This document shows positions 2,360 through 39,397 of a DNA stretch of 64,000 nt, in pieces. Made by a program: the position numbers and the translations under genes. The notes below the pieces were generated by a model. That model was given only the letters and a program-made list of their open reading frames with translations. It was not told the DNA's origin and made no database searches. Numbering within the stretch: position 1 is the first letter of the stretch; every line of letters starts with the position of its first letter. Source of the DNA: Chloroflexota bacterium. GTDB taxonomy: Bacteria; Chloroflexota; Limnocylindria; Limnocylindrales; CSP1-4. The DNA is taken from contig JBIQKJ010000010.1 of assembly GCA_044506615.1 (NCBI GenBank), positions 68,440 to 132,439 of the forward strand. Direction: 5' to 3'.

Positions 2360-4600
2360 TTGCTCCGCCGATCCGACTGTCCCACACTGCCGCCCGTGGT
2401 CGTCCTGTTCAGCACTGCAATCCTGCTTTCGGCTGCCCTCGTCTTCATGGTCCAGCCGATGATCGCGAAGGCGGTCCTGCCCACCTTCGGTGGTACTCCG
2501 CAGGTCTGGACGGCGTCGATGCTGTTCTTCCAGGCGGCACTGCTCGCCGGGTACGGGTACTCGCATGTCGCGACGCGGCGGCTGGCCGTCCGGCCACAGG
2601 CCGCGATCCACGTGGTCGTGATGCTGCTGCCGCTCCTGGTCCTGCCGATCGCCCTTCGCGGGGTCGACGTCGTGGACGGTGCGGCGCCCGCCCTTGCCGT
2701 GGTCGGGATCCTCGCCCTCAGCGTCGGCCTCCCGTACGTGGTGGCCTCGACGACCAGTCCGCTGATCCAGCGGTGGTTCTCTCTCACCGGGCACCGACAC
2801 GCAGCCGACCCGTACTTCCTGTACGCCGCGAGCAACGTCGGGAGCCTCGCCGGGCTCCTCGCCTACCCATTCCTCGTGGAGCCGAACCTGCGCCTCGCTG
2901 ATCAAGGCCTGCTGTGGTCGATCGGCTACGCGCTGTTCATCGTCGCGGCCGCAGCCTGCGCCGTTGTCGTCGCGCGGACCGCCCGGGCAGCTCCGGCCCC
3001 TGCCGATCTGACGACGACTGATGTCGCCGGCGACCCGCAGGAAGCCGAGGTCGCGGCGACTGATGTCGCGCCGACGTGGCGTCGACGCGCGACCTGGGTC
3101 TTCAAGGCGTTCATCCCCTCGAGCCTGCTGCTCGGCGTGACGACCCACGTGCAGACCGACGTCGCGGCCGTTCCCCTGCTCTGGGTCATCCCGCTCTCGC
3201 TGTACCTGCTGACTTTCATCGTCGCCTTCTCGCCTCGGAGGCCCTTCGGGCCGGCGGGTGCAGCGCGGGTGCTTCCATTCGCGGTCGTGCTGACCGTGCT
3301 GACGTTCTTCCGCGTCATTCCGTTGCCGATCTGGGCGAACGTCGCCATCCACGACATCACGTTCTTCATCGCGGCGATGGTTGCGCACGGACAGCTCGCC
3401 GACGACCGACCGAGCCCGCGCCACCTCACGGGGTTCTACCTGCTCCTCGCCGTCGGCGGCGCCCTCGGCGGCATCTTCAACGCGCTGATCGCGCCACTCG
3501 TGTTCGACCAGGTGCTCGAGTACCCGCTGCTGCTCGTGATCGCCCTGCTCCTCCGGCAAGCACGATCTCGACCCGAACGGACCGCACGCCAGGCTCGGCG
3601 CGCGCTGCTCACCGACCTCGTCGTCCCCGCGCTCTACCTCGTCGTGCTTCTGGCCGGTCTCGCCTATCTGCCATTGGGCGAGGACGGGGCCGCCGTTTGG
3701 GCGACATTGGTCACCGGGGCCACCCTGGTGACGGTCCCGTGGCCGCGTCGATTCGCGCTTGCGACGGGAGCGGTTCTCGCAGTGACGTTTCTCTCGAGCG
3801 CGGGCGGGCTGTTTGCGGATCGGACCTTCTTCGGCGTGAACCGGGTGATCGAGGACGATGCCGGCAGGCACATCTACCTCAGCGGCGCGACGATCCACGG
3901 GGTTCAGCGCTGGGAGCCGGGCGGGGGTCGTCAGCCGCTCAGCTACTACCATCCCACTGGCCCGGCCGGGCAACTCTTCGACCGGTTCCGATCGGATCCC
4001 GCCGTCACGGACGTGGCGATCATCGGGCTCGGCGCGGGCGGCCTCGCGGCGTACAACGAGGCCCACCAGCGGTACGTGTTCTACGAGATCGACCCCGTGG
4101 TGGTGGACATCGCGAGGGACCCGACGCTCTTTACGTTCCTCGCCGATGCGCCCGGTACCGTCGAGGTCATCGAGGGTGACGGCCGCCTGGAGATCGAGCG
4201 CGCGCCCGACGCGTCGTATGACGTCATCGTGCTGGATGCATTCAGCTCGGACGCGATCCCCGCGCATCTGGTGACCCGCGAGGCGATCGGGGTCTACCTG
4301 GCGAAGCTCAAGCCCGGTGGGGTGCTCGTCGCGAATGTGTCCAATGCGTACCTCGATGTCGCCTCGGTCGTCGCGGCGGCCGCCGCGGCCAACGATCTCG
4401 CCGGCTTTGTTCGCACCGACGCTGACCTCGACGATGTCCCGGCCGGTGACAAGGAGGCCTCGTCGTGGATTGCCGCGAGCCGGGAACGTGCGCCGATCGC
4501 GCACCTCGAGAGCGACGAGCGCTGGGTGGATCTCTCCGAGGTCGATCGCGGCAACCTCTGGACCGACGACTTCTCGGACATCCTCAGCGTCATCCGCTGA
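2360..4600 (+). CDS. Polytopic membrane protein fused to spermidine-synthase-like (class I Rossmann) domain
   Basis: N-terminal multi-TM block. C-terminal IIGLGAGGLAAY ... DVIVLDAFSSDAIPAHL ... LKPGGVLV. TTG 2360 start is uncertain (GTG 2396 is also possible). Confidence 0.8.
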   Translation: MLRRSDCPTLPPVVVLFSTAILLSAALVFMVQPMIAKAVLPTFGGTPQVWTASMLFFQAALLAGYGYSHVATRRLAVRPQAAIHVVVMLLPLLVLPIALRGVDVVDGAAPALAVVGILALSVGLPYVVASTTSPLIQRWFSLTGHRHAADPYFLYAASNVGSLAGLLAYPFLVEPNLRLADQGLLWSIGYALFIVAAAACAVVVARTARAAPAPADLTTTDVAGDPQEAEVAATDVAPTWRRRATWVFKAFIPSSLLLGVTTHVQTDVAAVPLLWVIPLSLYLLTFIVAFSPRRPFGPAGAARVLPFAVVLTVLTFFRVIPLPIWANVAIHDITFFIAAMVAHGQLADDRPSPRHLTGFYLLLAVGGALGGIFNALIAPLVFDQVLEYPLLLVIALLLRQARSRPERTARQARRALLTDLVVPALYLVVLLAGLAYLPLGEDGAAVWATLVTGATLVTVPWPRRFALATGAVLAVTFLSSAGGLFADRTFFGVNRVIEDDAGRHIYLSGATIHGVQRWEPGGGRQPLSYYHPTGPAGQLFDRFRSDPAVTDVAIIGLGAGGLAAYNEAHQRYVFYEIDPVVVDIARDPTLFTFLADAPGTVEVIEGDGRLEIERAPDASYDVIVLDAFSSDAIPAHLVTREAIGVYLAKLKPGGVLVANVSNAYLDVASVVAAAAAANDLAGFVRTDADLDDVPAGDKEASSWIAASRERAPIAHLESDERWVDLSEVDRGNLWTDDFSDILSVIR

Positions 4601-4615
4601 GGGCCCCCGCCTCGG

Positions 4616-4630: not shown

Positions 4631-5707
4631 ATGACCCACGTCTTCGTCGCGCCCCACCCCGACGACGTCGCCCTCTCCTGCGGCGGCCTCATCGCCTCGC
4701 TCCGTGAGCTCGGACAGAACGTCACGATCCTGACCGTCTTCTCCGGGACCGGCGCCGGCAACGGCAACCTGACCGACTACCAGCGGGAGGCCCTCGGCTT
4801 CGGCACCAAGGCCATGTGGCCGACGACCGAGGCGTTCAACCGCTCCGCGATCCTCGCCGACTACCCGGACGCTGCGCTCGTCCCCGCGTGGGCGGCCGAC
4901 GAGGATCGGCTCGAGGCCACCCAGGCCGATGCCGACGCTGCCGCGAAGCGGTTCTGGCAGCGCTCCTCGTGGTATCGACGCGCGAGCATCCGCAACGTCG
5001 CGCTCGCAGGCCAGCGGGTCATGGACGACGTCTCCACGCAGGGCCCGATCTACACGGACGGCATCGTCGAGGCGGCGCTGGCAGGCGATCTCATGGCCCG
5101 CCGCCGGGTCGAGGACGAGCGGTATGCCTACTTCGCCGAGGCCGCGATCGTCTTCCTCGACCTCCCCGACGCGGTCTTCCGCGGCTACGAGGGCGACGAC
5201 CAGCTGCTGTCCGCTCCCCGGCCCGACGACGACGCGCCGTACGAGGCCCTCCGGCGGGAGATCGTCCGGCTCGAGCCGCAGAAGATCTACTTCCCGCTCG
5301 GGATCGGCGGCCATGTCGACCACCAGCTGTGCCGGAACGTCGGCGTGCGGATGCTCGCCGAGGGTCGGGGCTGGGTCATGCCCGGGCCCGATTACGCCGG
5401 GATGACCGTGTTCTACGAGGACTTCCCGTACGCATGGTGGGAAGACTTCCGGCGGATCGAGGACCTCGGCCTGGGCGCGCTCGCCGGCTTCCCGGAGGAC
5501 CTCACGCTCGCGCCGCAGTACGCCGACGTGACCGATCAGATCGAGCGGAAGATCACCGGCATCTCGATCTACGAGAGCCAGCTCGAGCGCCTCTTCGACA
5601 GCCCCAAGGAGATGGGCGACGCGGTCCGCAGCTTCGGCAAGATCGTGGCCGAGCTCGGCAACGTGGCCGGCCTCGCCGAGCGCTACTGGGCGACCGCGCG
5701 AGTCTAA
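4631..5707 (+). CDS. PIG-L/LmbE family N-acetylglucosaminyl deacetylase with long insertion
   Basis: N-terminal VAPHPDDVALSCGG and a later GGHVDHQ motif typical of the PIG-L family. Confidence 0.8.
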   Translation: MTHVFVAPHPDDVALSCGGLIASLRELGQNVTILTVFSGTGAGNGNLTDYQREALGFGTKAMWPTTEAFNRSAILADYPDAALVPAWAADEDRLEATQADADAAAKRFWQRSSWYRRASIRNVALAGQRVMDDVSTQGPIYTDGIVEAALAGDLMARRRVEDERYAYFAEAAIVFLDLPDAVFRGYEGDDQLLSAPRPDDDAPYEALRREIVRLEPQKIYFPLGIGGHVDHQLCRNVGVRMLAEGRGWVMPGPDYAGMTVFYEDFPYAWWEDFRRIEDLGLGALAGFPEDLTLAPQYADVTDQIERKITGISIYESQLERLFDSPKEMGDAVRSFGKIVAELGNVAGLAERYWATARV

Positions 5708-6522
5708 ACGCGCTCCTTGCGCCTGCCGATCCACGCGATGATCGGCACAAGGAGCACGGGTACGCTCGTTACCGAGTAGAACAGCCCGCCGCCTCGCGAG
5801 TCCAGGACCACGCGAGGGTAGTCGAGCGTCGCACCAACGAAGGGGACTGACGCAAGGCCGAGGACCGCGAGGCCGATCCACCACCCGCGGCTCCGGATCC
5901 CGATCAGCGCGAACGGCGCCAGCGAGGGTTTGAGCAGCACGAGGACGCCCGGCCACCCGCGGAGATGCGCGAGCGCGAGGAACGCCGCAATCCAGAGCGA
6001 TGGGTTGGCGAAGACGACGTAGAGCAGCGTTACCGGATAGGCGATGCACAGCGCGAGAAGCGGCCGCGTCCATGCGGCGGGTCGCACCCGCCAAATGAAC
6101 CAGCCAAGAATGGCTATCGGCGCTGCGGTGAAGGTCCACGCCGGCAGGACCAGCCAAGGGAGGAAGAGCCAGGCGACGACGGGCGGATAGAGGACGTCCC
6201 CATGAACGATCGGGTAGGGACCGGAGAGCTGTCTCGAGAGGTACCAGTCGCCGTCAGCGAGGATTCGTGCCGTCGCGTCTCGATAGATCAGCAGGTCGTC
6301 GAAGAGGACCCGGGACCAGCCGACGCGATGACCGGCCATCGCGAAGATCGCGAGCCCAACGACGACGAACAGCACCGACAACCCGAGCGCGAGAGGACCT
6401 CCCCAGCGCAGGACAAGAGGCCGTGCAACCTCCGTGACGCGAACCCTCGGCTGCCACACCTGCGGAGGGGTTCCACTGAACGCACGTCGCGTGGTACGGC
6501 CTAGTTTGATCTCGAGTGCCAC
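5704..6522 (-). CDS. DUF2029/GT87-like polytopic membrane protein (putative GT-C glycosyltransferase)
   Basis: About 8 TM helices. Loop motif FDDLLIYRDATARILADGDWY follows TM1. GTG start at 6522 is uncertain. Confidence 0.6.
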   Translation of the reverse strand: MALEIKLGRTTRRAFSGTPPQVWQPRVRVTEVARPLVLRWGGPLALGLSVLFVVVGLAIFAMAGHRVGWSRVLFDDLLIYRDATARILADGDWYLSRQLSGPYPIVHGDVLYPPVVAWLFLPWLVLPAWTFTAAPIAILGWFIWRVRPAAWTRPLLALCIAYPVTLLYVVFANPSLWIAAFLALAHLRGWPGVLVLLKPSLAPFALIGIRSRGWWIGLAVLGLASVPFVGATLDYPRVVLDSRGGGLFYSVTSVPVLLVPIIAWIGRRKERV

Positions 6523-6710: not shown

Positions 6711-7946
6711 ATGGGGCTCCTGAGCTTGGCAGCGGCCGGCACGGTCGTTGCCACCGTGATCCGGCTCGTCCTCCTTCCGACCGACGGTCTCCGCGGTGAC
6801 ATCGACCAGTTCGTTGGCTGGGTGAACGGGATCGCCACCAACGGTCTCGGCAGGGCATTCGACCAGGAGCTGACGTTTGGGCCCGTGATCGCGTATGTGT
6901 GGGGCCTACTCGGGGCGGTCGAACCTGCCTTCCAAACCGCCACCGACGCGTCCGACCCGTGGATCCGCTCCTTGATGAAGCTGCCCGCGTCGCTCGCCGA
7001 TTTCGGGCTCGCGGCTGGCGTTCTCTACGGCCTCCGTGCCCGGCCCGCGCTCGCGGTGATCGGCGCCCTCGCGATCCTCTTCCAGCCGGCGACTTGGTAC
7101 GTGAGCGCCTGGTGGGGCCAATGGGAGTCGATGTACACGCTCCTCGCGTTGATCGCGGCGCTCTTCGCGATCGGGGGGCGCGACGGCTTCGCAGCGGCGT
7201 TCGTGGCGGCAGCGGTCCTCACGAAGCCGCAGGCGCTGCCCCTCCTCCTGCCATTCGCCGCCTGGTTCCTCGCAAGGGGAGGTTTGGCCGGCTTCCTGCG
7301 AGTCGCCGCGATCGGGCTTGCGACCGCTGCAGTCATCTGGCTCCCCTTCCTGGCGGCGGGTGGTCCCCTTCAATACCTGCGCGGGATTGGTGAGCTGCAG
7401 GACGAGACGTTCTCGATCCTGTCGCTTCGAGCGTGGAATGTGTGGTGGCTCGTGCAGGAGGCGGCTGCGGGCGGCTCGTTCGCATCCGATCGCACCGCAA
7501 TCCTCGGTCCAATCACGTTCCGACACATCGGATACGGGCTAACCGGGTTGCTCAGCCTGTTCGTCGCATTCCAAGTCTGGCGGCATCCACATCCGCGAAC
7601 CCTCGTCCTGGGGCTCGCCGCGGCGACGCTGATCGCATTCACGTTCCTGACCACAATGCACGAGCGCTACGCATACGCGGCGATCGTGTTCCTCTTGCTG
7701 CTGATCGATGACCGGCTGATCCGCGTTCTCGCGATCGCATTTGGCGTCGTCTTCACGCTCAACCTTCTCGCGGCGGTGCCCGCGACGGTGGCGATCAGTC
7801 AGCTGTTGCCGGTGTCGGGACTCGCGGGCATCGTGGGGTCCGGGTTGCTTGTCTCGCTCACGGTTCTTGTGGTCCTGTTGACGGCTGGCTCGAAGCCCGG
7901 CTCCCTGCCGCTTGAGAAGGTCGGTCTCGGCGAGCCCGCTCGGTGA
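6711..7946 (+). CDS. Polytopic membrane protein, GT-C-like (PIG-V/Alg-type mannosyltransferase-like)
   Basis: ATG 6711 inside ORF 6516..7946. Loop GDIDQFVGWVNGIATNG follows TM1, then more than 10 TM helices. Confidence 0.6.
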   Translation: MGLLSLAAAGTVVATVIRLVLLPTDGLRGDIDQFVGWVNGIATNGLGRAFDQELTFGPVIAYVWGLLGAVEPAFQTATDASDPWIRSLMKLPASLADFGLAAGVLYGLRARPALAVIGALAILFQPATWYVSAWWGQWESMYTLLALIAALFAIGGRDGFAAAFVAAAVLTKPQALPLLLPFAAWFLARGGLAGFLRVAAIGLATAAVIWLPFLAAGGPLQYLRGIGELQDETFSILSLRAWNVWWLVQEAAAGGSFASDRTAILGPITFRHIGYGLTGLLSLFVAFQVWRHPHPRTLVLGLAAATLIAFTFLTTMHERYAYAAIVFLLLLIDDRLIRVLAIAFGVVFTLNLLAAVPATVAISQLLPVSGLAGIVGSGLLVSLTVLVVLLTAGSKPGSLPLEKVGLGEPAR

Positions 7947-8793
7947 CGATACGGGAGAACACCGCGTGCGTTGCGACCGCCACCAAGGCAAGGAGCCCCG
8001 CCCCCTTGACTGGCAGCACGACAACCGCCGCCGCAACTGCGCTGCCTGTCGGTAGAACGAGGGTCGCGTAGTACTGCTGAGCGGATGGCCAAAGGGCCGG
8101 AACAGCCAGCCACGCCGCGTTCGCTCGCCCAACTGCCAAGAGGGCCAAAAGGCCGACAGGCGCGAGCGCAAGATGAAGCGGCATTGGAAGGCTCCAGCCC
8201 GCCTGTTCCTCCAGTCGCCCGTTGATCGCAGCAAGCTCCGAGAAGAAGGTGGGCCAAGGCATGAGTGGAACCGTGACAACCAGGATAAGCAGGGTGAAGG
8301 CAACCGGTCTCCATCGACCGAGGATCACGTCGGGCACGATTGCGTAGATCTTGAGCAGCGCAGCCAGTCCCCCTCCGCCCGCCAAGACCAAGGGCACGAG
8401 CAGTCCCTGTACATTCGCCCCGAGCATTGAGTGAACGAGAGGAGGAAAGAGGAGCCACCAAAGTGGTAAGCCCAGCATCCGCACGGTCGCCAGGCATCCG
8501 GCGACGATGAGAGCCGCCAGCACGAAGAGACCTACGGGCTCCGGCAACATCGCGAGTGGCGCCAATGGCAGGAGCGTCGGAGGAGGGGCCGCGAAGAAGA
8601 CCCCGTCGAGCTCGGTTGTCCACGGATTCTGACCGGCCAGCCAGTTTCGCGATGCGGCGAGATAAAGCTCCCCATCCCCGAGAAGGCGATCGCCCCGCAC
8701 GGCCACCTGCTGAACCCCTACCGCCGAAACAGCCGCAAACCACACGGCCAAGCCGTACCTTCGGAACCACCCGGTGACAAACCGAACGTTCAC
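7858..8793 (-). CDS. DUF2029-like small polytopic membrane protein, paralog family A member 1
   Basis: Motifs GDGELYLAASRNWLAGQNPW, FAAPPPTLLPL, LPLWWLLFPPL, LLKIYA, WPSAQQYY. GTG 8793 overlaps the upstream stop (GTGA). Confidence 0.65.
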   Translation of the reverse strand: MNVRFVTGWFRRYGLAVWFAAVSAVGVQQVAVRGDRLLGDGELYLAASRNWLAGQNPWTTELDGVFFAAPPPTLLPLAPLAMLPEPVGLFVLAALIVAGCLATVRMLGLPLWWLLFPPLVHSMLGANVQGLLVPLVLAGGGGLAALLKIYAIVPDVILGRWRPVAFTLLILVVTVPLMPWPTFFSELAAINGRLEEQAGWSLPMPLHLALAPVGLLALLAVGRANAAWLAVPALWPSAQQYYATLVLPTGSAVAAAVVVLPVKGAGLLALVAVATHAVFSRIVTERARRDRPSQAAGSRASSQPSTGPQEP

Positions 8794-11064: not shown

Positions 11065-11304
11065 ATGACAGATCTCGACAAACTTCGCGAGGCGTTTCGC
11101 GAGGCCCTGTTCCTGGATGAGACCGCGGACGTCGATGCCCTTGAATATCGCGGTATCGAGCAGTGGGACTCGCTCGCGCACCTCACCCTCGTCGCCAAGG
11201 TGGAAGACACATTCGACCTGATGCTGACCACCGACGAGGTCATCGATCTGAGCTCATTCCAGGTCGCTCGGCGCATCCTCGCCAGCCACGGTGTCGATGT
11301 CTGA
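11065..11304 (+). CDS. Acyl/peptidyl carrier protein
   Basis: 79 aa, acidic, with a phosphopantetheine-site-like motif EQWDSLAHLTLV. Confidence 0.75.
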   Translation: MTDLDKLREAFREALFLDETADVDALEYRGIEQWDSLAHLTLVAKVEDTFDLMLTTDEVIDLSSFQVARRILASHGVDV

Positions 11305-14504: not shown

Positions 14505-14505
14505 C

Positions 14506-15735: not shown

Positions 15736-15758
15736 TCCGTAGCGTCGTGCGCCAGTAG

Positions 15759-32154: not shown

Positions 32155-33350
32155 ATCCGGTACGCCCAGTACGGCGCGAACGCCATCACGACGAGCCCGA
32201 CCGCAATCACCGCGCGCCAGGGCCACGACACGCCGCCTCGGTACACCGCCGCCATCCCGCAGATCGCCCAGAGGAACGGGATCGAGTCGAGGAAGTAGCG
32301 GTAGCCGTACTGGAGCCAGCCACCGCCGTAGTAGAGGAGCGTCGGGATCAGGACCGCGACTGCGGCACCCAGCAGCAGCCACGCCGTCCGATCACGCCAG
32401 TCGGCGCGGACCGCGTAGAGGAGGCCGGGCGTCGTGAGGAACACCGACATGCCGAGCCCGTCGGGCATGAAGAACGGGAACTCGTCGATGAGCCGCGGCA
32501 GGTGGAAGAAGAGGTAGTCGACGTTCATCGGCACGTGGGCGATCGAGAAGAGCCCGAGCTCGCGCTGCTCGGCCAGCCACCCGGGCAGACGCGCCAGCGC
32601 GTACCCGGATTCCAGCGGCGTGCCGAACCGGAGCTCGTTATAGAGGAAGAAGAAGACGATCGACGGCAGGACACCGAGGCCGAGCGCGACCCACCGTCGC
32701 CATTGCTCTCCGGGGAGGCGCCAGGTGATCGCGCCGTCCCACAGGAGCAACGCGTAGAACGGGACCGCGAACGCGAGCGGCGCCCGCGTCAGGAACGCCG
32801 CCCCTGCGAGCAGGCCGATCAGCCAGGCCCGGCGCCGGCCCCACAGCTCGATGAGACAGCCGAGGGTCAGCAGCGTCGCGATGAGATGCCCGGTGTGCCA
32901 GACGCCACCGCGGGTGGTGATCCACAGGATCTGCGTCGAGAAGCCGAGCAGCGCCACGAGCCAGATTCGGTCCCACAGCCGTTCGACGCCGATCCGGCCG
33001 AGCAGCCACCAGCCCATCCCGACGCTCGCCGCCGCGAGCAGCGCGTTGATCCCCGACTCCCAGATGTCGGCGCTCTCTGCCCCGATGAGTGCCACGAGCG
33101 GCATGAACGCGATCGCCGGGAACGGCGCAAAGGGGACGTAGAACCGGCCGTCGATTGCGATGACGTCGTTCGCGTTGGGACCGCCGGGCGGGAACTCGAG
33201 CCAGGTTCGGCCTTGGAGGAACGCCTCCGCCAGGTAGAAGAAGTCGCCGCGGCCGGCCTCGAAGCCGCGGTTGGCGATCCAGTAGATGACCGCCGAGACC
33301 GCCACCACGGCGAGCCCGATGAGGGTCGTCCGCTCCCGCAGCTGCGTCAC
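32151..33350 (-). CDS. ArnT/PMT_2-like GT-C membrane glycosyltransferase
   Basis: GTG 33350 overlaps the upstream stop. RGDFFYLAEAFLQGRTW loop and about 11 TM helices. Confidence 0.6.
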   Translation of the reverse strand: MTQLRERTTLIGLAVVAVSAVIYWIANRGFEAGRGDFFYLAEAFLQGRTWLEFPPGGPNANDVIAIDGRFYVPFAPFPAIAFMPLVALIGAESADIWESGINALLAAASVGMGWWLLGRIGVERLWDRIWLVALLGFSTQILWITTRGGVWHTGHLIATLLTLGCLIELWGRRRAWLIGLLAGAAFLTRAPLAFAVPFYALLLWDGAITWRLPGEQWRRWVALGLGVLPSIVFFFLYNELRFGTPLESGYALARLPGWLAEQRELGLFSIAHVPMNVDYLFFHLPRLIDEFPFFMPDGLGMSVFLTTPGLLYAVRADWRDRTAWLLLGAAVAVLIPTLLYYGGGWLQYGYRYFLDSIPFLWAICGMAAVYRGGVSWPWRAVIAVGLVVMAFAPYWAYRI

Positions 33351-34417
33351 GGTCTCGCCGGCACAGCGGGGGCCTCGACCGTCGGGCCGATCTCCCGTCG
33401 GGCAACCGCTGGCAAGAGCAGCACGAGCAGGACGACGAGCGCCGCGACAGGAAGGACGTCGCCGGGCAACCAGCCCGCGAGCGGCAAGGCGACAGCGACG
33501 GGGGTGAGGCGATCCACGAGGAACGCCGCAGGGATGAGCAGGATCACGAGGTAGTGCGGGTGGAGGAACGGGGCGGTCAGCAGGGTTGCCGTTGCCGTCA
33601 CGACGAATGCCGTGTCCCGATCCCTTCGTGCGGCGGCGTACGCGATCGCGGAAGCGCCGAGCACCACGCCGAGCACGAGCCCGGCGGTCGCAATCTCAGG
33701 GCCGAAGCCCGCACCGAGCGCGATCGACTTCAAGCTGAAGTTGTGCTCTCCGGCGCTGACATCCGGAAGTCCCGTGAGGAGCGCCAGGTACTCGCGGTAC
33801 GCATCGAGACCGACGATAGGGACGGACAGCAGGAGGATGACGATGCCGGCGAGGACGGTCCGCGCCACCATCGTCCATCGCCGTTGGAAGAGCCATTGAA
33901 CGCCGAAGACGAGAAATGGGATTCGCAGCATCGCGAGCGCGGCATGGACGATTCCGGCGACCCACCCATCGCCGAGTCGCCAGGCGACGGCAGTCAGCGC
34001 GAACAGCACCACACTGATGTTGCCCAGGTTCAGATCGAAGAGCACCGGAAACGACACGCAGGCGACGGCAAACGTCCCGAGTCGTGCGGCACGGGACACC
34101 GGCATGGCTGCACATCCCACGATGAGAAGCGCCAGCCGAAGGGCGAACCAGACGAACGCTGCCGACTCCGGGGGCAGCAGCGCCAGCGGCACAAAGCTGA
34201 TCGCCACAGGCGGTGGATACAGGTAGAGGCCCTCATACGCGCCCGAGCGATAGGCGCCAGCCGTTCCCGGAAGGTACAGAGGCTCGCCGTTGAGCAGCCG
34301 ACGCGCCGCTTCGTCATACGCGCGGAAGTCGTATGCCCAACCCTCACTGCCCTGGAAGATCGCCGCCGCGAGGATCAACACGGCCAAGCCTGTCGCAGCC
34401 GCTACCGGCAGAAGCAT
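33347..34417 (-). CDS. DUF2029/GT87-like polytopic membrane protein
   Basis: ATG 34417 (TTG 34450 possible). GWAYDFRAYDEAARRLLNGEPLY after TM1. Confidence 0.65.
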   Translation of the reverse strand: MLLPVAAATGLAVLILAAAIFQGSEGWAYDFRAYDEAARRLLNGEPLYLPGTAGAYRSGAYEGLYLYPPPVAISFVPLALLPPESAAFVWFALRLALLIVGCAAMPVSRAARLGTFAVACVSFPVLFDLNLGNISVVLFALTAVAWRLGDGWVAGIVHAALAMLRIPFLVFGVQWLFQRRWTMVARTVLAGIVILLLSVPIVGLDAYREYLALLTGLPDVSAGEHNFSLKSIALGAGFGPEIATAGLVLGVVLGASAIAYAAARRDRDTAFVVTATATLLTAPFLHPHYLVILLIPAAFLVDRLTPVAVALPLAGWLPGDVLPVAALVVLLVLLLPAVARREIGPTVEAPAVPARP

Positions 34418-34461: not shown

Positions 34462-35253
34462 TCAGCCGTCGCCCCCCGCAGCCGGCGCAGCACGACGCAC
34501 CGGTCGATGGATGAATGGGATTCGCAGGAGATCCCAGGCGACCTGGAGCGCGAGGCGCGGCCGCGCACGCATGCGGGACCCGCGCTTGTCTGCCCACTTG
34601 ATCGGCACCACGGAGATCCGGTACCCGCGTCGACGGGCGAGGTAGATCAGCTCTACGTCGAAGACGATGCTGGTGATTCGCTGCCGCGCGAAGAGGTCCT
34701 GCGCGGCCGCGTGCGTGAACCCCTTGAAGCCGCACTGGGTGTCCTTGACCGGTCCGACGACCCAGACCGACGCGAAGAGGTGGAACGCCCACCCGAGGAC
34801 CCGCCGGAAGATCGGCTGGCTCGCGCGCATGTCGGAGCCGTCCGGCTGGATGCGCGACCCGAGCGCCACATCGTGCGTCTCGAGCGCCGCCACCAAGAGG
34901 GGGAGCTGATCGGGCGGGGTCGCCATGTCGGCGTCGGCGAAGACCACCACGTCGCCGAGGGCAGCGAGCATGCCGGCGCGGACGGCCGCACCCTTGCCCC
35001 CGTGCGGCACCTCGAGGACGTCGAGCGTGACACCCGGGACCTGAGCCACGCCGTGCTCCGGGCGGGCGCGCACCAAGTTGGCCGTGCCATCGGTGCTGCC
35101 GTCGTCGACGACGAGGACTTCGACCGCTGCCGGGACGCTCCCGGAAGGAACCACCTCGCGGAGCCAGGTGAACAGCTCATCGAGGGCAGGGCCGAGCCGC
35201 TCCAGCTCGTTGTAGGCGGGCAGGACGATCGAAAGGCGCTGGACGGGAGGCAT
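34462..35253 (-). CDS. GT2, dolichyl/polyprenyl-phosphate beta-glucosyl(mannosyl)transferase-like
   Basis: LSIVLPAYNE, VLVVDDGSTDGT, HGGKGAAVRAG, FADADMATPP, TQCGFKGF. Confidence 0.85.
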   Translation of the reverse strand: MPPVQRLSIVLPAYNELERLGPALDELFTWLREVVPSGSVPAAVEVLVVDDGSTDGTANLVRARPEHGVAQVPGVTLDVLEVPHGGKGAAVRAGMLAALGDVVVFADADMATPPDQLPLLVAALETHDVALGSRIQPDGSDMRASQPIFRRVLGWAFHLFASVWVVGPVKDTQCGFKGFTHAAAQDLFARQRITSIVFDVELIYLARRRGYRISVVPIKWADKRGSRMRARPRLALQVAWDLLRIPFIHRPVRRAAPAAGGDG

Positions 35254-35382: not shown

Positions 35383-36084
35383 ATGCCCGCCCTGGAGGAT
35401 TCCGTGCACAACCATCACCACGCGACGAGCGAGCATGCCGCCGCCGGAATCGACCTCGAAGTCGGGTCCACCGCGTGGTCGGAATGGGTCAAGGACTACT
35501 ACCGCGACATCGAGACGTATGACTGGGTCGATGTCGCCGACAACCTTCGTGGGCTCGAAGCGTTCTTCCACCGCAATCGTGCTCGGGTGGTCCGCGGCCT
35601 CGTGTCGAAGTTCGCCCCCGCAGGTGCGGCCATCCTCGACGCCGGCTGTGGAACCGGGCTGAACCTGCGCAACTTGCCCCCGACGGCCGTCGGCATCGAC
35701 ATCAACCCGCGGAACCTCGAACTGATCCGGAGCCGCCTGCCCCACCACGTCGTTGAAGGGGACATCGAGGCGATGCCGTTTCCGGACGGCTCCTTCGACA
35801 CGATCCTCTGCACCGAGGTGCTGGAGCACGTACCGGCCCCCGAGACGGCGCTGCGCGAGTTCAATCGGGTGCTTCGGCCCGGCGGGGTGCTCATCGGGTC
35901 GGTACCGGCTCGATCACTGATCTGGAAGCTGCGGTTCCTCTCGAGCACGTGCCCGCACAGTGAGCCCTTCCACAACGAGTACCTGCCCCATGAGGTCCGG
36001 GCGATGCTCGCGGGCTGGACCGTCGAACAGATCCGGTACTCGCTGCTCCACTTCAACGTGATGTTCGTCGCCCGCAAGCGGTAG
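35383..36084 (+). CDS. Class I SAM-dependent methyltransferase
   Basis: ILDAGCGTGLNL, VEGDIEAMPFPDGSFDTILCTEVLEHV, LRPGGVLI. Start is ATG 35383 or GTG 35350. Confidence 0.75.
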   Translation: MPALEDSVHNHHHATSEHAAAGIDLEVGSTAWSEWVKDYYRDIETYDWVDVADNLRGLEAFFHRNRARVVRGLVSKFAPAGAAILDAGCGTGLNLRNLPPTAVGIDINPRNLELIRSRLPHHVVEGDIEAMPFPDGSFDTILCTEVLEHVPAPETALREFNRVLRPGGVLIGSVPARSLIWKLRFLSSTCPHSEPFHNEYLPHEVRAMLAGWTVEQIRYSLLHFNVMFVARKR

Positions 36085-36164: not shown

Positions 36165-37766
36165 GTGCGTACCCCCGTCCTGCTGTATCTGCTTGCGCTC
36201 GCGGTCCGCGCGTTGCTCATCGCGCTCTACCCGGACCCCGCGTACCCCGATTCCTACTACTACGTCGACGTCGCGAGGTCCCTTGCCGCCGGTCGCGGGT
36301 TCACAGTCGACTTCGTCTGGATCTTCGCCGAGGTGGGCGGCCGCATCCCGGCCCACCCGACCCTGCCGATCCCGTCGAACGCGCATTGGATGCCATTGGC
36401 GTCAATCGTGCAGGTGCCGTTCCTTGCTCTGTTCGGCCCGGTGGCGTGGGCTTCGGCAGCGCCCTTCGCCTTGATCGGATCTGCGGCCGCGCCGCTCGCG
36501 TGGGCGATCGCGCGAGACGCGGGTGCGCGACCCTGGGTCGCCCTGGGTGCCGGCGTCCTCACCGCGATCCCCGCCATGTCGGTCGTCTACATGGTTCAGC
36601 CAGACAACTTCTCCCTCTTCCAACCCCTGGTGGCGGGCGCCCTGTGGATGACGGCTCGCGGGCTCAAGGGCTCGCCTCGATCATTCATGCTCGCCGGGCT
36701 GCTCACCGGGCTCGCCACCCTGTCGCGCAATGACGGGCTCCTGGTCGCCGCCACCCTCGGGGTTGCCGTGGCGTGGGATCGCTGGCGGGCATGGCGATCG
36801 AGAAGCATCCGGCCGCCGGCCATTCCGTGGGTCGCCGTCGTCGTCGCAGCGATCGCATTCCTCGCCGTCATGGCGCCGTGGTGGCTCCGACAGCTTTCCG
36901 TCTTCGGATCGCTGTCGCCGTCCACCGCGTCCGGAAAGGTCCTGTTCATCCGCGACATCGGCGAGTGGAACAGCATCACCACGCCAGCAACCCTCGAGCA
37001 CCTGCTCGGTATGGGTGCCGGGCCGTTGATCGCGACGCGGCTGGGCGGCCTCGTGGCGGCGGTGACGATCTACGCGACATTGGTGGGGGGCGTCATCCTC
37101 GCGCCGCTGATGCTGGTCGGGGCGTGGGCGCGCCGGCGGTCCGTCGACTTCGGCCCGTTCTTCATCTATGCGCTCCTCCTGTTCGCGTTCTCGGCACTGG
37201 TTTCGGCCGTCCACGTGCCTGGCGGGACGTTCATCCACTCCGCGGTAGCGCTCGCGCCCCACAGCTACGTCCTGGCCCTCGAGGGCATCGCCGTCGCCGT
37301 CGCCTGGATCGCTCATCGCCGGCCAACGTGGCAACCCGCACCCGCGACTCGGATCTTCACCACGGCTGCGGTGGCATTCGCCGTGTTGGTCGGCGTGGCG
37401 GGATCGGCGTTCGTTCACCAGGTCTGGGGCGAGCGTCGCGAGCGAGGACGAGCGGTGGCCGCCGCCCTGGATGCTGCCGGTGCGTCACCGTCCGACCGGG
37501 TGATGTCCATCGATGCCGCGGGTACTCGGTACTGGACGGGTCGCGGGGGTGTCGTGCTCGTGAACGATCCGCTCGAGACCGTCGCGGAGGTGGCGCGCGC
37601 CTACGACGTCGACTGGCTGGTGCTCGAGCGGGACGACACCGTCTCGGCAGCGGCCCCGGTCTTCGAGGGAGAGCGGCCCGACTGGGTCGGCCCGCCGGTC
37701 CTCGAGCGTGGGGACGATCGTGTGACGCTCGCGGTCTACCCGGTTCGACTGGATCCACAGCCATGA
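36165..37766 (+). CDS. ArnT/PMT_2-like GT-C membrane glycosyltransferase
   Basis: LYPDPAYPDSYYYVDVARSLAAGRGF after TM1, LSRNDG, about 12 TM helices plus a C-terminal soluble domain. Confidence 0.7.
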   Translation: MRTPVLLYLLALAVRALLIALYPDPAYPDSYYYVDVARSLAAGRGFTVDFVWIFAEVGGRIPAHPTLPIPSNAHWMPLASIVQVPFLALFGPVAWASAAPFALIGSAAAPLAWAIARDAGARPWVALGAGVLTAIPAMSVVYMVQPDNFSLFQPLVAGALWMTARGLKGSPRSFMLAGLLTGLATLSRNDGLLVAATLGVAVAWDRWRAWRSRSIRPPAIPWVAVVVAAIAFLAVMAPWWLRQLSVFGSLSPSTASGKVLFIRDIGEWNSITTPATLEHLLGMGAGPLIATRLGGLVAAVTIYATLVGGVILAPLMLVGAWARRRSVDFGPFFIYALLLFAFSALVSAVHVPGGTFIHSAVALAPHSYVLALEGIAVAVAWIAHRRPTWQPAPATRIFTTAAVAFAVLVGVAGSAFVHQVWGERRERGRAVAAALDAAGASPSDRVMSIDAAGTRYWTGRGGVVLVNDPLETVAEVARAYDVDWLVLERDDTVSAAAPVFEGERPDWVGPPVLERGDDRVTLAVYPVRLDPQP

Positions 37767-39397
37767 GCCGCCGTGAGGCCATCCTGACCGCGCTCGGGAT
37801 CTTCGCCGTCGCCCTCGCAGTCCGGTTCTGGTTCGCCGCGCAGATCGTCTACGCGAAGCCAGAGGACACGGCGTACTACGTCGGCGTCGCCCGGAACCTG
37901 CTGGAAGGCCGTGGGCTCATCTCGGATGCGCTGTGGAGCTACCAGACGCCGCCGCTCGAGCTCGGCCGTGATGCATTCGAAGTGTGGATGCCCCTCCCGA
38001 CGTTCCTGGCAGCGATCACGATGGCCGTCTTCGGCGTCTCCTTCACGGGGGCGCAGGTCTCATCCGTCATCGTCGGCGCGATGCTGCCCGTGCTGGCGTG
38101 GCGCCTGGCGGCCGACGTGGCGGACGATCGTCGCTTCGACGCGTGGCGTGCTCGGACGATCGCGATCGGGACAGGCCTGACCACTGCCGTCTATCTACCG
38201 GTCCTGCTGTTCTCGGCGTTGCCTGACTCGACGATGCCGTTTGCGGTGCTCGTCCTCGGTGCCTGCCTGCTCATGACCCGCATCCTCCGGGAGCCCGCTG
38301 CCCCCGCGCGGGTTGATGGCCGGGCGATCGCGCTCGGCGTTGTGCTCGGCTTGGGGGCCCTTACCCGCAACGAAACCGCCATTCTCGCCCTGATCTGGGC
38401 GGTGCTCGTATGGTTCCGGACTGGCTGGACGCTGGCGGAGCGTCTTCGCCTCATCGGGATCGTGGCCCTGGCTGCGTTCGTCGTGTTTCTCCCATGGATC
38501 GTCCGGAACCTCGTGGTCCTTGGTCACCCTTTGCCCAGCCAAGCGGCTGCGAATGCGCTCTATCTGACCGGTTTCGACGTCTTTGCATGGAACGACCCGC
38601 CAACGCTCGCCCGCTACCTCGCGCAGGGTCCGCTGCACCTCCTCGAGCTGCGTGTCGAGGGCACGGCGCACAACCTCTTCAATGTGCTCCTCTATCTCGG
38701 GCTGCCGATCTCGCTGATCGGCCTGGCGACCCTGCCCTGGCAGGGTCGCGACGCGGCTACACGGCCGCTGGTGCTGATCAGCGTGGTGCTGTTCGTGTTC
38801 ATCAGCCTCGTGTTCCCGGCCGCCACGCAGTGGGGAACATTCCTTCATGCCGCGGGACCCGCCCACGTCCTCCTGGTGCTCAGTGCATTGCTCGCTCTCG
38901 ACGCGGCGATTGCCCGGCTTGGCCAACGGCTCGGGTGGACGAACCCAGTAGCGTGGCTGGGGCCGGCCCTCGGAGTCTTCGCATCGCTGCTGTTCTCCGC
39001 GGTGCTGCTCGCAGGATTCGGCGCGAGCTCGCGCGAAACGGCGACCTATTACCAGGAGCTTGGCCGCCGCATGGCGGCAATCGGGCGGCCCCTCGACGCT
39101 TCCGCGGGACCCGTGATCTCCAACTTCCCCATTTGGGTGGCCGAGGAGTTCAGGATCCCCGCCCTCGCGCTGCCAAACGAGCCGCCCCTCGACGTCCTCG
39201 ACCTGGCCGCGTCGTTCGAGGGGACGCGGCTGTTGATCCTCAGCGATCCGGGCCATCCCCATTGGCCAGCCGACCTGGACGCCGGGGCGCCGGGCAGCGA
39301 GTGCTTCCAGGAGCTGGACCTCGGCGTGGCCCCCGACGCCACGTTGGCGACCGATCCCCTCGCGAAGACCCGCGTCTTCGTGATTGCCTGTCCATGA
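37763..39397 (+). CDS. ArnT/PMT_2-like GT-C membrane glycosyltransferase (tandem paralog)
   Basis: ATG 37763 overlaps the upstream stop (ATGA). KPEDTAYYVGVARNLLEGRGL, LTRNET, C-terminal soluble domain. Confidence 0.7.
   Translation: MSRREAILTALGIFAVALAVRFWFAAQIVYAKPEDTAYYVGVARNLLEGRGLISDALWSYQTPPLELGRDAFEVWMPLPTFLAAITMAVFGVSFTGAQVSSVIVGAMLPVLAWRLAADVADDRRFDAWRARTIAIGTGLTTAVYLPVLLFSALPDSTMPFAVLVLGACLLMTRILREPAAPARVDGRAIALGVVLGLGALTRNETAILALIWAVLVWFRTGWTLAERLRLIGIVALAAFVVFLPWIVRNLVVLGHPLPSQAAANALYLTGFDVFAWNDPPTLARYLAQGPLHLLELRVEGTAHNLFNVLLYLGLPISLIGLATLPWQGRDAATRPLVLISVVLFVFISLVFPAATQWGTFLHAAGPAHVLLVLSALLALDAAIARLGQRLGWTNPVAWLGPALGVFASLLFSAVLLAGFGASSRETATYYQELGRRMAAIGRPLDASAGPVISNFPIWVAEEFRIPALALPNEPPLDVLDLAASFEGTRLLILSDPGHPHWPADLDAGAPGSECFQELDLGVAPDATLATDPLAKTRVFVIACP

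Follow-up and report, generated by a model that had tools for sequence, protein, structure and literature searches.

The 64,000-nucleotide stretch of DNA analysed here (the window) carries a 37-kb island (2360–39397) that encodes 13 membrane GT-C glycosyltransferase candidates and three GT2 enzymes, with two further GT-C candidates outside it. Gene calling by codon usage matches the coordinates of the initial annotation, with only small start-codon differences. The site of the island is conserved, with a PCMT gene on one side and a PMT_2 pair, a two-component system, and an Flp/Tad array on the other, into which the island physically runs on (a link absent from the initial annotation). All 15 membrane proteins proposed as GT-C-like have some support, albeit unequal: seven pass a Pfam gathering score (four GT87 and three PMT_2), four have a profile-profile link to the GT87 family (probability 95.5–96.8%), two match by predicted structure, and two show weaker matches. 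By profile and structure searches, the candidates fall into GT-C families or have GT-C folds, and none goes to a transporter family.

Eight of these proteins had been described as DUF2029/GT87-like, and this assignment holds. Four exceed the Pfam GT87 cut-off of 25 bits, namely 27920..28936 (plus strand, 28.7 bits), 31276..32154 (minus strand, 46.5 bits), 33347..34417 (minus strand, 80.1 bits), and, outside the island, 54300..55184 (minus strand, 28.6 bits). The other four, all on the minus strand, are linked by family profile. The divergent 5704..6522 has no Pfam match, and its family profile aligns with GT87 at 96.8% (E 2e-10), while the family of 7858..8793, 8790..9689, and 23031..23975 does so at 95.5% (E 1.5e-8). 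These last three are paralogues of 33–48% identity (48% between 7858–8793 and 23031–23975), and 8790–9689 is up to 70% identical to proteins of relatives. The loop motif said to be common to all eight is exact in five, 7858–8793 and 31276–32154 among them, and approximate in three; it does not occur in 50 codon shuffles. Its D-x3-Y element never varies within three sets of GT87-like orthologues, as with D76 and Y80 in the 5704–6522 family and D57 and Y61 in that of 23031–23975. The spacing equals that of the catalytic pair D58/Y62 of PimE, where D58 serves as catalytic base and each of the substitutions Y62A, Y92A, and K195A abolishes activity (PMC12041525). The family profile of 33347–34417 matches PimE itself (9dm5, E 2.5e-6), with D30/Y34 at the same spacing and with Y67, R165, and H288 aligned to PimE Y92, K195, and H321. 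Thirteen GT-C enzymes keep the catalytic Asp, with the Asp/Tyr pair in the GT87-like ones.

Three of the four proteins considered ArnT/PMT_2-like pass Pfam PMT_2 (cut-off 26.1). Two form a plus-strand pair with a 4-nt overlap at 36165..37766 and 37763..39397 (38.4 and 26.4 bits), which in 24–26 of 41 relatives separates the island from the two-component system. The third (56739..58367, plus strand, 31.7 bits) lies outside the island, and its orthologues, at 56–59% identity, hold the same position in two relatives (L086 and L089). The fourth, 32151..33350 (minus strand), putatively PMT_2/ArnT-like, is the least supported candidate, and its assignment to GT-C is weak: a Pfam scan gave no match, the NCBIfam LA_3751/LA_3752 putative glycosyltransferase family is matched at E 9e-6 and by 6 of 12 orthologues, and hhalign aligns it with the PMT_2 trio at 54% (E 1.3e-4), with D36 nearly invariant. 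Also among the weaker cases is the putative ALG6/ALG8-like enzyme 6711..7946 (plus strand), which matches Alg6_Alg8 below the Pfam cut-off (E 1e-4). Among its orthologues, 14 of 21 match Alg6_Alg8 and 8 of 21 match GT87; the family profile matches ALG6 (6snh, E 0.0055), and D30, F34, and W37 are invariant.

The remaining two candidates have no Pfam or NCBIfam match and were assigned through predicted structures, for which all credible matches are GT-C enzymes. The AF2 model of 23972..25402 (minus strand; pLDDT 92) finds GT-C enzymes in all of its best 31 PDB matches, with STT3 first (Foldseek E 9e-8) and DPY19, AglB, PglB, AftD, AftA, and ArnT also among them. This large family has more than 1,400 homologues in the protein database, none with a Pfam domain and nearly all named "hypothetical protein" (one "MFS family permease"), and D28 is invariant among orthologues. 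For 15759..17711 (plus strand; pLDDT 73, pTM 0.80), the best seven Foldseek matches are all GT-C, with AftA first (E 4e-8) and a sharp drop thereafter; those named are AftA, ArnT, STT3, DPY19, PglB, and ALG9. Its family has 391 representatives in 1.8 billion proteins, none of which carries a name. The acidic/aromatic signature was originally described as following the first transmembrane helix, but in 15759–17711 the conserved stretch (R136-D137 ... E143-F-x-D146 ... Y150) follows the fourth predicted helix. The statement that no Emb/Aft-sized protein is present also needs amending: nothing is Emb-sized, but this 650-aa protein is an AftA-like GT-C.

The three GT2 enzymes, all encoded on the minus strand, are of the DPMS/ArnC/GtrB type, whose members attach single sugars to polyprenyl phosphate; this confirms the initial annotation. 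GT2a (9673..10398) is a Pfam GT2 protein with a catalytic domain only; among solved structures it best matches the Pyrococcus Dol-P-Man synthase 5mlz (E 2e-16 over the full catalytic domain), followed by ArnC and GtrB, and it reaches 86% identity in relatives. GT2b (19707..20720) matches the ArnC model (179 bits) and PgfS (160 bits) over the full length, and has two C-terminal transmembrane helices near residues 252 and 278 (ArnC/GtrB/PgfS type). GT2c (34462..35253) matches ArnC (1e-13), DPMS (9e-11), and the NCBIfam dolichyl-phosphate hexose transferase (52 bits). Two of these genes directly precede GT-C genes, in the runs GT2a > 8790 > 7858 and GT2c > 33347 > 32151 > 31276. Overlaps of 4–17 nt join GT2 to GT-C gene and GT-C genes among themselves; GT2a overlaps its own GT-C gene by 17 nt, and GT2c ends 44 nt upstream of its own. 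The proposal that the GT2 enzymes make donors that the GT-C enzymes use is strengthened by this layout. The GT2b operon ends tail-to-tail with the operon terminating in 15759–17711, the predicted partner of GT2b.

Each GT2 enzyme has sugar-tailoring genes of its own. For GT2a these are two genes on the minus strand. An NDP-sugar 6-dehydrogenase forming uronic acid (21800..23008; TIGR03026, 281 bits, cut-off 190) has UDP-Glc and UDP-ManNAc dehydrogenases as nearest solved structures and is up to 85% identical in relatives. A nucleotide-sugar SDR (20717..21739; Pfam Epimerase), a 4-epimerase or decarboxylase, has GalE, UDP-GlcA decarboxylase, and UDP-GlcA 4-epimerases among its nearest solved structures and is up to 89% identical. 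The set of GT2b joins an ACP/LuxE/LuxC acyl module to a WecE-type aminotransferase and a methyltransferase, and belongs to a roughly 10-kb strain-specific cassette that carries a modified 4-amino-4,6-dideoxyhexose module. The dTDP-4-keto-6-deoxyhexose 4-aminotransferase (17714..18838, minus strand) matches NF008687 (583 bits, cut-off 375) and TIGR02379 (570 bits, cut-off 435). The SAM-dependent methyltransferase (18835..19710, minus strand; Pfam Methyltransf_23/25/11) adjoins DegT also in L081–L083, and the 15759 family adjoins DegT and methyltransferase in three other contigs, with a GT2 in two of the three. The plus-strand acyl module identified by Pfam (11065..15735) consists of an ACP-like protein (11065–11304), a FabG-type SDR (11291–12043), an AMP-ligase (12040–13443), LuxE (13440–14504), and LuxC (14506–15735). 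Aeromonas flagellin glycosylation islands list these five genes in the same sequence (PMC7874193); the module was not found in the relatives retrieved around the 23972 homologue. At the cassette edge lies a C-terminal GNAT fragment (10422..10805, minus strand; Acetyltransf_3 E 0.003, C-terminal part only), of which L081 and L082 have intact genes within the same cassette.

Several further genes of the island could act on a primer. These are a PIG-L/LmbE-family de-N-acetylase (4631..5707, plus strand; Pfam PIG-L, 57.8 bits, weak BshB1 match), with orthologues up to 75% identical and beside the ALG6-like gene in several relatives; a cytoplasmic GT4 (25453..26625, minus strand; Pfam GT4/GT1), a candidate primer-forming enzyme with partial similarity to BshA, MshA, and GlcNAc-PG synthase models; and a FemAB-like GNAT (26657..27865, minus strand; Pfam Acetyltransf_6, 112 bits), next to GT4 in relatives. 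A fused MFS/spermidine-synthase-like protein conserved in the locus (28942..31218, minus strand; Pfam MFS_1 and Spermine_synth, NCBIfam MFS_SpdSyn 96.6 bits) has weak N-terminal similarity to 2396..4600 (plus strand), a protein of about 11 transmembrane helices with a C-terminal spermidine-synthase-like domain (MFS_SpdSyn 64.6 bits, cut-off 40, residues 555–680). For the latter, which is no GT-C enzyme, flipping and modification are candidate roles. Both fusions and a nearby LPG_synthase_TM protein are flippase candidates; for the fusions, this role is a guess by analogy. A second SAM-dependent methyltransferase lies at 35383..36084 (plus strand; Methyltransf_11, 92.7 bits).

Among relatives, the island varies in content between about 9 kb and 33 kb. 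The order GT2c-GT87-Y-MFS/SpdSyn-AcT6-GT4-X-DH-Epim-GT2a-GT87-ALG6like-PIGL is found repeatedly, and a minimal core recurs of GT2, GT87, FemAB-like acyltransferase, GT4, GT87-like, and PIG-L. The complete chromosome L176 has the compact form GT2c-GT87-AcT6-GT4-GT87like-PIGL. Of 41 relatives, 37 have AcT6, 34 the 33347-type GT87, 31 GT4, and 26 the 32151 type. The relatives found with locus proteins are all metagenome-assembled or other uncultured genomes; the host lineage is Limnocylindria-like Chloroflexota of soil or groundwater, known only from metagenomes. The 37 kb is a mosaic of lineage-conserved core, paralogue expansion, and strain-specific 10-kb cassette, and therefore does not necessarily encode one single pathway. 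Nothing among the sequences retrieved matches a characterised polysaccharide cluster, and our literature search turned up no paper about GT87 or GT-C enzymes of Chloroflexota. The chemistry is of a known kind, but neither the island nor two of its enzyme families have been described.

The most likely role of the island is to assemble a glycan of the cell surface, outside the cytoplasmic membrane, from lipid-linked single sugars with its 13 membrane glycosyltransferases. Pfam scans of every called gene of the window found no phosphoglycosyltransferase, Wzx, Wzy, ABC exporter, or LCP protein, which upholds the earlier reading on initiation and export; the initiating enzyme could be encoded beyond the window. 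We give an even chance to our preferred, fuller reading of outer-face assembly without a Wzx/Wzy or ABC route, leading to a PIM/LM-like or GPI-like lipid-anchored product. The acceptor would be a lipid-anchored primer of cytoplasmic origin, to which GT4 would add GlcNAc, from which the PIG-L enzyme would take off the acetyl group, and whose amine the FemAB-like GNAT would re-acylate. Once flipped by an MFS-type fusion protein, the primer would be lengthened and decorated outside by GT87, ALG6-like, and other GT-C enzymes, for which PIM/LM/LAM and GPI assembly serve as the model. The cassette would add an N-methylated or N-acylated 4-amino-4,6-dideoxyhexose as a strain-specific side group. The content of the island would differ from strain to strain much as in surface-antigen loci. 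Against a lipid anchor, the analysis identified neither a phosphatidylinositol-related gene nor another anchor-lipid gene here.

The main rival to a lipid-anchored glycan is glycosylation of protein, namely Flp pilin. The island abuts the PMT_2 pair and, co-directional with it on the plus strand, a histidine kinase, a LuxR-type response regulator, and a second histidine kinase (39424..42512, Pfam; the regulator 83–95% identical in close relatives), followed by four Flp pilin genes, RcpC, CpaE-like, TadA, TadB, and TadC (42509..49739, plus strand; Pfam Flp_Fap, RcpC, T2SSE, T2SSF). This array has the same gene order in relatives, and in another phylum homologues of 23972–25402 lie next to flp genes. 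The adjacency of the island to these genes and the flp neighbours of the homologues both speak for a protein acceptor. As a syntenic neighbour of the island, the Flp/Tad array may provide the acceptor. Lastly, the GT4/PIG-L/GNAT trio might make a soluble compound, because it also looks like the opening steps of bacillithiol or mycothiol synthesis.

Codon-usage gene calling recovers about 63 genes in the window, which has a G+C content of about 69%. All 15 polytopic membrane proteins proposed as GT-C glycosyltransferases in the initial annotation are present where it had placed them, and seven of the 15 reach the Pfam gathering score for GT87 or PMT_2 in profile searches. The GT87 score (PF09594) is reached by 27920-28936, 31276-32154, 33347-34417 and 54300-55184, and the PMT_2 score (PF13231) by 36165-37766 (PMT2a, 38.4 bits), 56739-58367 (31.7 bits) and, at the borderline, 37763-39397 (PMT2b, 26.4 bits against 26.1). 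The PF09594 cut-off is missed by 5704-6522, 7858-8793, 8790-9689 and 23031-23975, whose kinship with GT87 appears at the profile-profile level only. The last three are mutual paralogues (33-48% identical) with no Pfam match, and in hhalign comparisons their family profile aligns to the 33347-type GT87 family with a probability of 95.5% (E 1.5e-8); the 5704-6522 family aligns to GT87 with a probability of 96.8% (E 2e-10). The 33347 family profile matches the solved PimE structure (E 2.5e-6), which anchors the group to an experimentally studied enzyme; identity between PimE and the GT87 proteins of the window is very low, and this match is seen only with the family profile.

The remaining candidates are more divergent. 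The protein encoded at 6711-7946 scores 21.5-21.7 bits against the ALG6/ALG8 model (GT57, PF03155; cut-off 25), but 14 of its 21 orthologues match Alg6_Alg8 and the family profile matches yeast ALG6 over nearly its full length. Judged by sequence it is ALG6-like, with membership in ALG6/ALG8 not demonstrated. The protein at 32151-33350 has no match to the PMT_2 model (PF13231). It shows a weak NCBIfam match to the 'LA_3751/LA_3752 putative glycosyltransferase' family, shared by 6 of 12 orthologues, and hhalign against the PMT_2 trio aligns its D-F-F-Y..A..L..G stretch with a probability of 54%; it gave no link to the 23972-25402, 6711-7946, 33347-34417 and A9 families. It is the weakest of the GT-C cases, a weakly supported putative member. 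Likewise, hhalign found no link between families A9 and A7, or between the 23972-25402 family and GT87, the ALG6-like family or PMT_2. Among solved-structure sequences, no match was found for the family profiles of 5704-6522 and 32151-33350 or for the single sequence of 36165-37766.

Structure prediction addressed two proteins that the initial annotation had left unclassified, 23972-25402 and 15759-17711, and for both the credible matches are exclusively GT-C enzymes. The model of 23972-25402 has a pLDDT of 92 and a pTM of 0.91, and its best 31 PDB matches are all GT-C, with STT3 first at 9e-8, followed by DPY19, AglB, PglB, AftD, AftA, ArnT, AftB, ALG3, PimE and Pmt4. In fold it comes closest to the protein-glycosylating GT-C enzymes STT3, DPY19, AglB and PglB, with TM-scores of 0.62 to STT3 and about 0.55 to AftD and ArnT. 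The protein has no Pfam STT3 match and no WWDYG motif, its conserved motifs such as PWGSWFEF being different, and its C-terminal domain spans about 130 aa where a large one is expected of STT3, AglB or PglB. As modelled, it resembles these enzymes in fold only, and the features that define their family are missing. The model of 15759-17711 is of moderate quality (pLDDT 73, pTM 0.80); its seven best matches are to AftA (4e-8), ArnT, STT3, DPY19, PglB and ALG9, after which the probability collapses. Homologues number more than 1,400 for the 23972 family and 391 representatives for the 15759 family, and a second homologue search with the 15759 profile returned no new sequences. The exact 23972-25402 protein was found only in two Logan assemblies of sequencing runs. 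Both families lack a Pfam or NCBIfam match and appear undescribed.

The eight GT87-like proteins had been described as sharing a D-x3-Y motif just after the first transmembrane helix (TM1). The motif is exact in five of the eight and inexact in the other three, and it never arises in codon shuffles. The broader expectation of an acidic signature in the first extracytoplasmic loop is borne out by an invariant Asp in the orthologue alignments of 33347 (D30), 23031 (D57), 5704 (D76), 23972 (D28) and 6711 (D30), and by the nearly invariant D36 of the 32151 family. It fails for 15759-17711, in which the conserved acidic and aromatic stretch lies after the fourth predicted helix and not after TM1. 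The N-termini of the GT-C proteins are rich in Lys and Arg and the loops are net acidic, consistent with a loop outside. In PimE the catalytic base is D58, at the tip of the first juxtamembrane helix, where it is hydrogen-bonded by Y62, and the mutants Y62A, Y92A and K195A are dead (PMC12041525). Compared with the PimE constellation of D58, Y62, Y92, K195 and H321/H322, residues Y67, R165 and H288 of 33347-34417 align with Y92, K195 and H321. The D30/Y34 pair of this protein has a spacing like that of D58/Y62 and lies upstream of the aligned block; since the pair falls outside the HMMER alignment, its equivalence to D58/Y62 rests on spacing. Three orthologue alignments show the D-x3-Y pair without variation, as D30/Y34 (33347), D57/Y61 (23031) and D76/Y80 (5704).

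The three GT2 enzymes are of the polyprenyl-phosphate-sugar synthase type, as the initial annotation had proposed, with matches to ArnC, PgfS and DPMS. GT2b (19707-20720) gives full-length alignments with the ArnC and PgfS models and carries two C-terminal TM helices, GT2a (9673-10398) is nearest to the Pyrococcus dolichol-phosphate-mannose synthase (E 2e-16), and GT2c (34462-35253) is nearest to ArnC and DPMS. As read from the coordinates, two of the GT2 genes lie directly upstream of GT-C genes. The 8790-9689 gene shares 17 nt with GT2a at one end and 4 nt with 7858-8793 at the other. Next in line after GT2c are 33347-34417, 32151-33350 and 31276-32154, with 4-nt overlaps at the second and third junctions, and after them comes a fusion of MFS-type and spermidine-synthase-like domains. 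Because three DPMS/ArnC-type GT2 genes are present and two of them stand in this position, we infer that the GT-C enzymes use polyprenyl-phosphate-linked donors. Homology, fold, conservation of catalytic residues and gene coupling together make the general mechanism well supported: the three GT2 enzymes make polyprenyl-phosphate monosaccharides, which the many GT-C enzymes use outside the membrane.

The export genes reported as missing are indeed absent: Pfam searches of the called genes of the window found no phosphoglycosyltransferase, Wzx, Wzy or ABC exporter family, and no LCP ligase family in any called gene of the 64 kb. No GtrA, ArnE/F or MATE flippase occurs among the called genes either. 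The sole flippase candidates in the window are the MFS-type fusions and an LPG_synthase_TM protein at 60302-61462, which resembles the flippase domain of MprF and may be a flippase for lipid-linked sugars because weak homologues (28-30%) lie within the glycan locus of two relatives, L036 and L053. The fusions, at 2396-4600 and 28942-31218, are membrane proteins with a C-terminal spermidine-synthase-like domain and are not GT-C proteins; 2396-4600 had been considered as a GT-C enzyme and was rejected on this ground. One of the two is kept inside the glycan island of relatives. A role as flippase or as glycan-modifying enzyme is possible for them.

The relatives retrieved with several proteins are Chloroflexota, mostly Limnocylindria/Limnocylindrales or 'uncultured Chloroflexia' MAGs, together with some Actinomycetota MAGs; all are uncultured or metagenome-assembled genomes, and in the Tad region the nearest are about 80% identical at the nucleotide level. 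This makes the source of the window an uncultured member of the Chloroflexota with Limnocylindria-like affinity. Comparison of 80 loci around a 23972 homologue, and of 41 GT2c loci with full flanks, shows that gene order is kept among the Chloroflexota loci. The shared order runs GT2c, GT87, 32151-type, an optional GT87, the MFS/spermidine-synthase fusion, AcT6 (a FemAB-like GNAT, 26657-27865), GT4 (25453-26625) and 23972-type, and continues with dehydrogenase, SDR, GT2a, GT87-like, ALG6-like, PIG-L (4631-5707) and PCMT. Core enzymes are 75-89% identical between relatives and window. Across the 41 GT2c loci, AcT6 is present in 37, the 33347-type GT87 in 34, GT4 in 31, the 32151-type gene and PMT2b in 26 each, PMT2a in 24 and the response regulator (RR) in 22. 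Several loci show the entire order Flp, histidine kinase (HK), RR, HK, PMT2b, PMT2a, a variable segment, and GT2c through GT4 to the 23972-type gene, and one complete chromosome (L176) carries a compact version of about 9 kb with GT2c, GT87, AcT6, GT4, GT87-like, PIG-L and PCMT. This comparison places the island at a fixed site, with PCMT on one side and the PMT_2 pair, the two-component system and the Tad array on the other, and with a content ranging from about 9 kb to about 33 kb. Since relatives have a median of three and a maximum of seven GT-C-like genes per 20.8 kb, the window stands at the expanded end. The island, the variability of its content at a fixed site and its continuity with the Tad locus appear undescribed; literature searches on the envelopes of Limnocylindria, the glycosylation of Flp pilins and the GT87 or GT-C enzymes of Chloroflexota yielded no publications.

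The region is a mosaic that includes a strain-specific cassette. On the minus strand, a run of about 10 kb comprises AcT6, GT4, 23972-25402, 23031-23975, a dehydrogenase, an SDR, GT2b, a methyltransferase and an aminotransferase (17714-18838), with 4-nt overlaps at four junctions. Converging on it is a series of genes for ACP, SDR, AMP-ligase, LuxE, LuxC and 15759-17711, so that the GT2b operon ends tail-to-tail with the operon ending in 15759-17711. In relatives the SDR either adjoins GT2a or lies less than 1 kb from it; in the window the distance is 10.3 kb. The 10.3-kb insert, absent from most relatives, contains a GNAT fragment, the acyl module, 15759-17711, the aminotransferase, the methyltransferase and GT2b. 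A 15759-type GT-C gene with DegT and methyltransferase genes recurs on three unrelated metagenome contigs, on two of them with a GT2 gene as well. The fragment at the cassette edge (10422-10805) is a 127-aa GNAT C-terminus, which looks like a remnant of rearrangement because the equivalent cassette on other contigs has intact GNAT genes. G+C content is 0.65-0.68 at 6000-24000 and 0.69-0.74 in the flanks, as would fit a part of the island that varies and may have been exchanged.

The aminotransferase is WecE-type and scores above the curated cut-offs for dTDP-4-amino-4,6-dideoxyhexose synthesis, so the cassette sugar is not L-Ara4N, and an L-Ara4N (Arn) pathway for 17714-23008 was rejected on this basis. 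The dehydrogenase, SDR and GT2a suggest a lipid-linked uronic acid or pentose donor. A dehydrogenase/SDR/GT2 trio of this kind resembles the Rhizobium Rgt and Arn pathways, and the solved relatives nearest to the dehydrogenase and SDR leave the identity of the sugar unfixed. The acyl module has a close parallel in the flagellin glycosylation islands of Aeromonas, where the same five genes occur in the same sequence (ACP, 3-oxoacyl-ACP reductase, AMP-synthetase, LuxE, LuxC), followed by a glycosyltransferase (PMC7874193). However, the downstream transferase is a GT-A-fold GT2 in Aeromonas and a GT-C here, and the sugar context is pseudaminic acid there and a 4-amino-4,6-dideoxyhexose here; the function of the module is putative in both.

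The conserved minimal core of the island consists of a cytoplasmic GT4, a PIG-L-family deacetylase, a FemAB-like GNAT, a DPMS-like GT2 and two GT87-type enzymes. These are the enzyme classes of PIM/LM and GPI anchors, for which reason a lipid-anchored glycan is the favoured product: a primer containing GlcN would be made, flipped by an MFS-type protein and built into the lipid-anchored glycan. We give this whole reading an even chance of being right; the extracytoplasmic GT-C logic taken alone is far more certain. In mycobacteria, PIM, lipomannan and LAM are assembled by the PimA/PimB GT4 enzymes, the acyltransferase PatA, the GT2 Ppm1 and the GT87-type GT-C enzymes PimE and Mpt. Like that system, the island combines a cytoplasmic GT4 with an acyltransferase, has GT2 donor synthases of the DPMS type and several PimE-like GT87 enzymes in which the catalytic Asp and Tyr are spaced alike, and lacks Wzx/Wzy or ABC export. 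It differs in its host (Chloroflexota instead of Corynebacteriales), in the gathering of the genes into one island, and in the addition of a PIG-L deacetylase, two membrane/spermidine-synthase-like fusions, and ALG6-like and unclassified GT-C enzymes; moreover, the window has no phosphatidylinositol-related gene and no Emb-sized protein. The eukaryotic GPI-anchor and lumenal N-glycan steps (PIG-A GT4, PIG-L, DPM1, and the GT-C enzymes PIG-M/V/B and ALG3/6/8/9) offer a second parallel, at family level only, in the co-occurrence of a GT4, a PIG-L-family deacetylase, a DPMS-like GT2 and an ALG6-like GT-C. Unlike in GPI assembly, there is no sign of an inositol lipid, a transamidase or ethanolamine-phosphate transferases, and the PIG-L match spans only part of the 358-aa protein. 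A thiol-biosynthesis role for GT4 and PIG-L was set aside as improbable. Both proteins fall far below the bacillithiol and mycothiol equivalog cut-offs, GT4 with 132 bits for BshA (cut-off 274) and 106 bits for MshA (cut-off 462) and PIG-L with 39.6 bits for BshB1 (cut-off 182), and no BshC or MshC ligase was found in the window.

Alternatively, the GT-C enzymes may move lipid-linked sugars or glycans to secreted proteins, the PMT_2 pair and 23972-25402 being the transferases, and the Flp pilins most likely, or an S-layer protein, the acceptors. We consider this unlikely. In its favour, PMT2a, PMT2b, HK, RR, HK (two-component genes at 39424-42512) and the first Flp gene, within 36165-43718, all point one way and either overlap by 1-4 nt or are separated by less than 30 nt, so the PMT_2 pair may share a transcription unit with the Flp/Tad genes, and the order recurs in many relatives. 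Four Flp pilin paralogues stand in a row at 42509-43718, two of them 87.5% identical, with RcpC, CpaE-like, TadA, TadB and TadC genes downstream. Among 13 long loci with a 23972-type gene (38-43% identical) from Actinomycetota MAGs, 10 place it no more than about 10 kb away from tadA, tadB, tadC and a cpaE-like gene. Detailed reading of two of them (L047:9528-11407 and L079:8869-11400) shows it divergently adjoining an flp gene, and L047 has an rcpC-sized ORF between flp and cpaE. Archaeal type IV pilins are glycosylated by AglB, and the Pseudomonas TfpO and TfpW genes adjoin pilA. The structural kinship of 23972-25402 with STT3, DPY19, AglB and PglB points the same way, but its TM-score to STT3 is little above those to AftD and ArnT, and the missing Pfam STT3 match and WWDYG motif and the small C-terminal domain weigh against an oligosaccharyltransferase. 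Furthermore, none of the four Flp pilins of the window has an N-x-S/T sequon, the functionally known GT87 enzymes work on glycolipids, and adjacency within one clade may reflect inheritance and not function.

A narrower form of this idea, which is speculative and quite improbable, is that the 23972 family is a new oligosaccharyltransferase-like GT-C glycosylating the Flp pilins of Tad pili, with the island, the PMT_2 pair and the two-component system supplying and regulating the lipid-linked glycan. It is prompted by a family that is large, has no Pfam or NCBIfam match, sits in the glycan island of Chloroflexota and is flp-adjacent in Actinomycetota. As with TfpO/PilO and the GT-C enzyme TfpW of Pseudomonas and with archaeal AglB, a membrane glycosyltransferase gene has a pilin gene as its neighbour in the two Actinomycetota loci examined closely. 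Oligosaccharyltransferases are nearest in fold, but there is no sequence-level membership in STT3 or O-antigen ligases, and in the window the 23972 gene lies 17 kb from the flp genes, in contrast to the pilin-adjacent TfpO and TfpW. If true, the family would be a bacterial counterpart of AglB-dependent archaeal type IV pilin glycosylation, serving a pilus family thought to be of archaeal origin.

We also doubt, somewhat more than for protein glycosylation at large, that the island decorates or extends a peptidoglycan-linked wall polysaccharide in the manner of arabinogalactan or of teichoic-acid glycosylation, with the phosphoglycosyltransferase and LCP ligase encoded elsewhere and the island amounting to several independent Gtr/Arn-type modules, each of a GT2, a flippase and a GT-C. 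Chloroflexus peptidoglycan reportedly carries a covalently bound complex polysaccharide. The pairing of GT2 synthases with GT-C and nucleotide-sugar enzymes fits the published logic of the Gtr, Arn and GT136 three-component systems (PMC11127046), GT2b, with its C-terminal TM helices, is ArnC-like, 15759-17711 finds its best structural match in AftA, and module content varies between relatives. The cassette at 15759-20720 in particular mirrors the ArnB/ArnC/ArnT logic, although its amino sugar comes by the WecE-type dTDP-4-amino-4,6-dideoxyhexose route and not by UDP-Ara4N, neither Pfam nor NCBIfam has a match for the family of its GT-C, and many modules are stacked in one locus. Against this reading, the 64 kb hold no GtrA-type, ArnE/F or MATE flippase, phosphoglycosyltransferase or LCP ligase; the cytoplasmic GT4, deacetylase and acyltransferase of the minimal core look like primer synthesis and not decoration. 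Finally, that unrelated envelope genes were clustered by duplication and drift, the GT-C paralogues serving independent pathways and no single system, would suit the mosaic region with its strain-specific cassette, the varying number of paralogues and the compact 9-kb version, but is very improbable given an order kept across dozens of species-level genomes, translational overlaps within operons and the high identity of core proteins between relatives.

Little is understood of the Chloroflexota cell envelope, whose architecture has been under debate for a long time (PMC7332563). The chemistry seen here belongs to a known kind. Metagenome surveys of soil, sediment and fresh water commonly recover Limnocylindria-type lineages, for which the island offers a concrete set of genes, open to experimental testing, behind a major surface glycoconjugate. 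Mycobacteria and the eukaryotic ER are the best-known users of assembly from polyprenyl-phosphate sugars by GT-C enzymes, and the island shows heavy use of it in a distant phylum, with gene content varying at a fixed chromosomal site like that of surface-antigen loci. For annotation, two GT-C families that match nothing in Pfam or NCBIfam are now available, as are two divergent GT87-like subfamilies, and a testable link is raised between GT-C enzymes and Tad/Flp pili.

Two further observations concern the far end of the window. Genes for a PHP-domain protein, MreB and a MurA-like enzyme occupy 61534-63999, at its very end, which is consistent with a rod-shaped bacterium with peptidoglycan. The stretch downstream of the Tad operon contains an IS1595-family transposase (50488-51441) and an ORF (51511-51795) that have no counterpart at this position in the genus-level relatives examined, and an HTH gene (51959-52648) is missing in the loci L086 and L089 and present in L087 and L088, which points to a recent insertion at 50488-52648.
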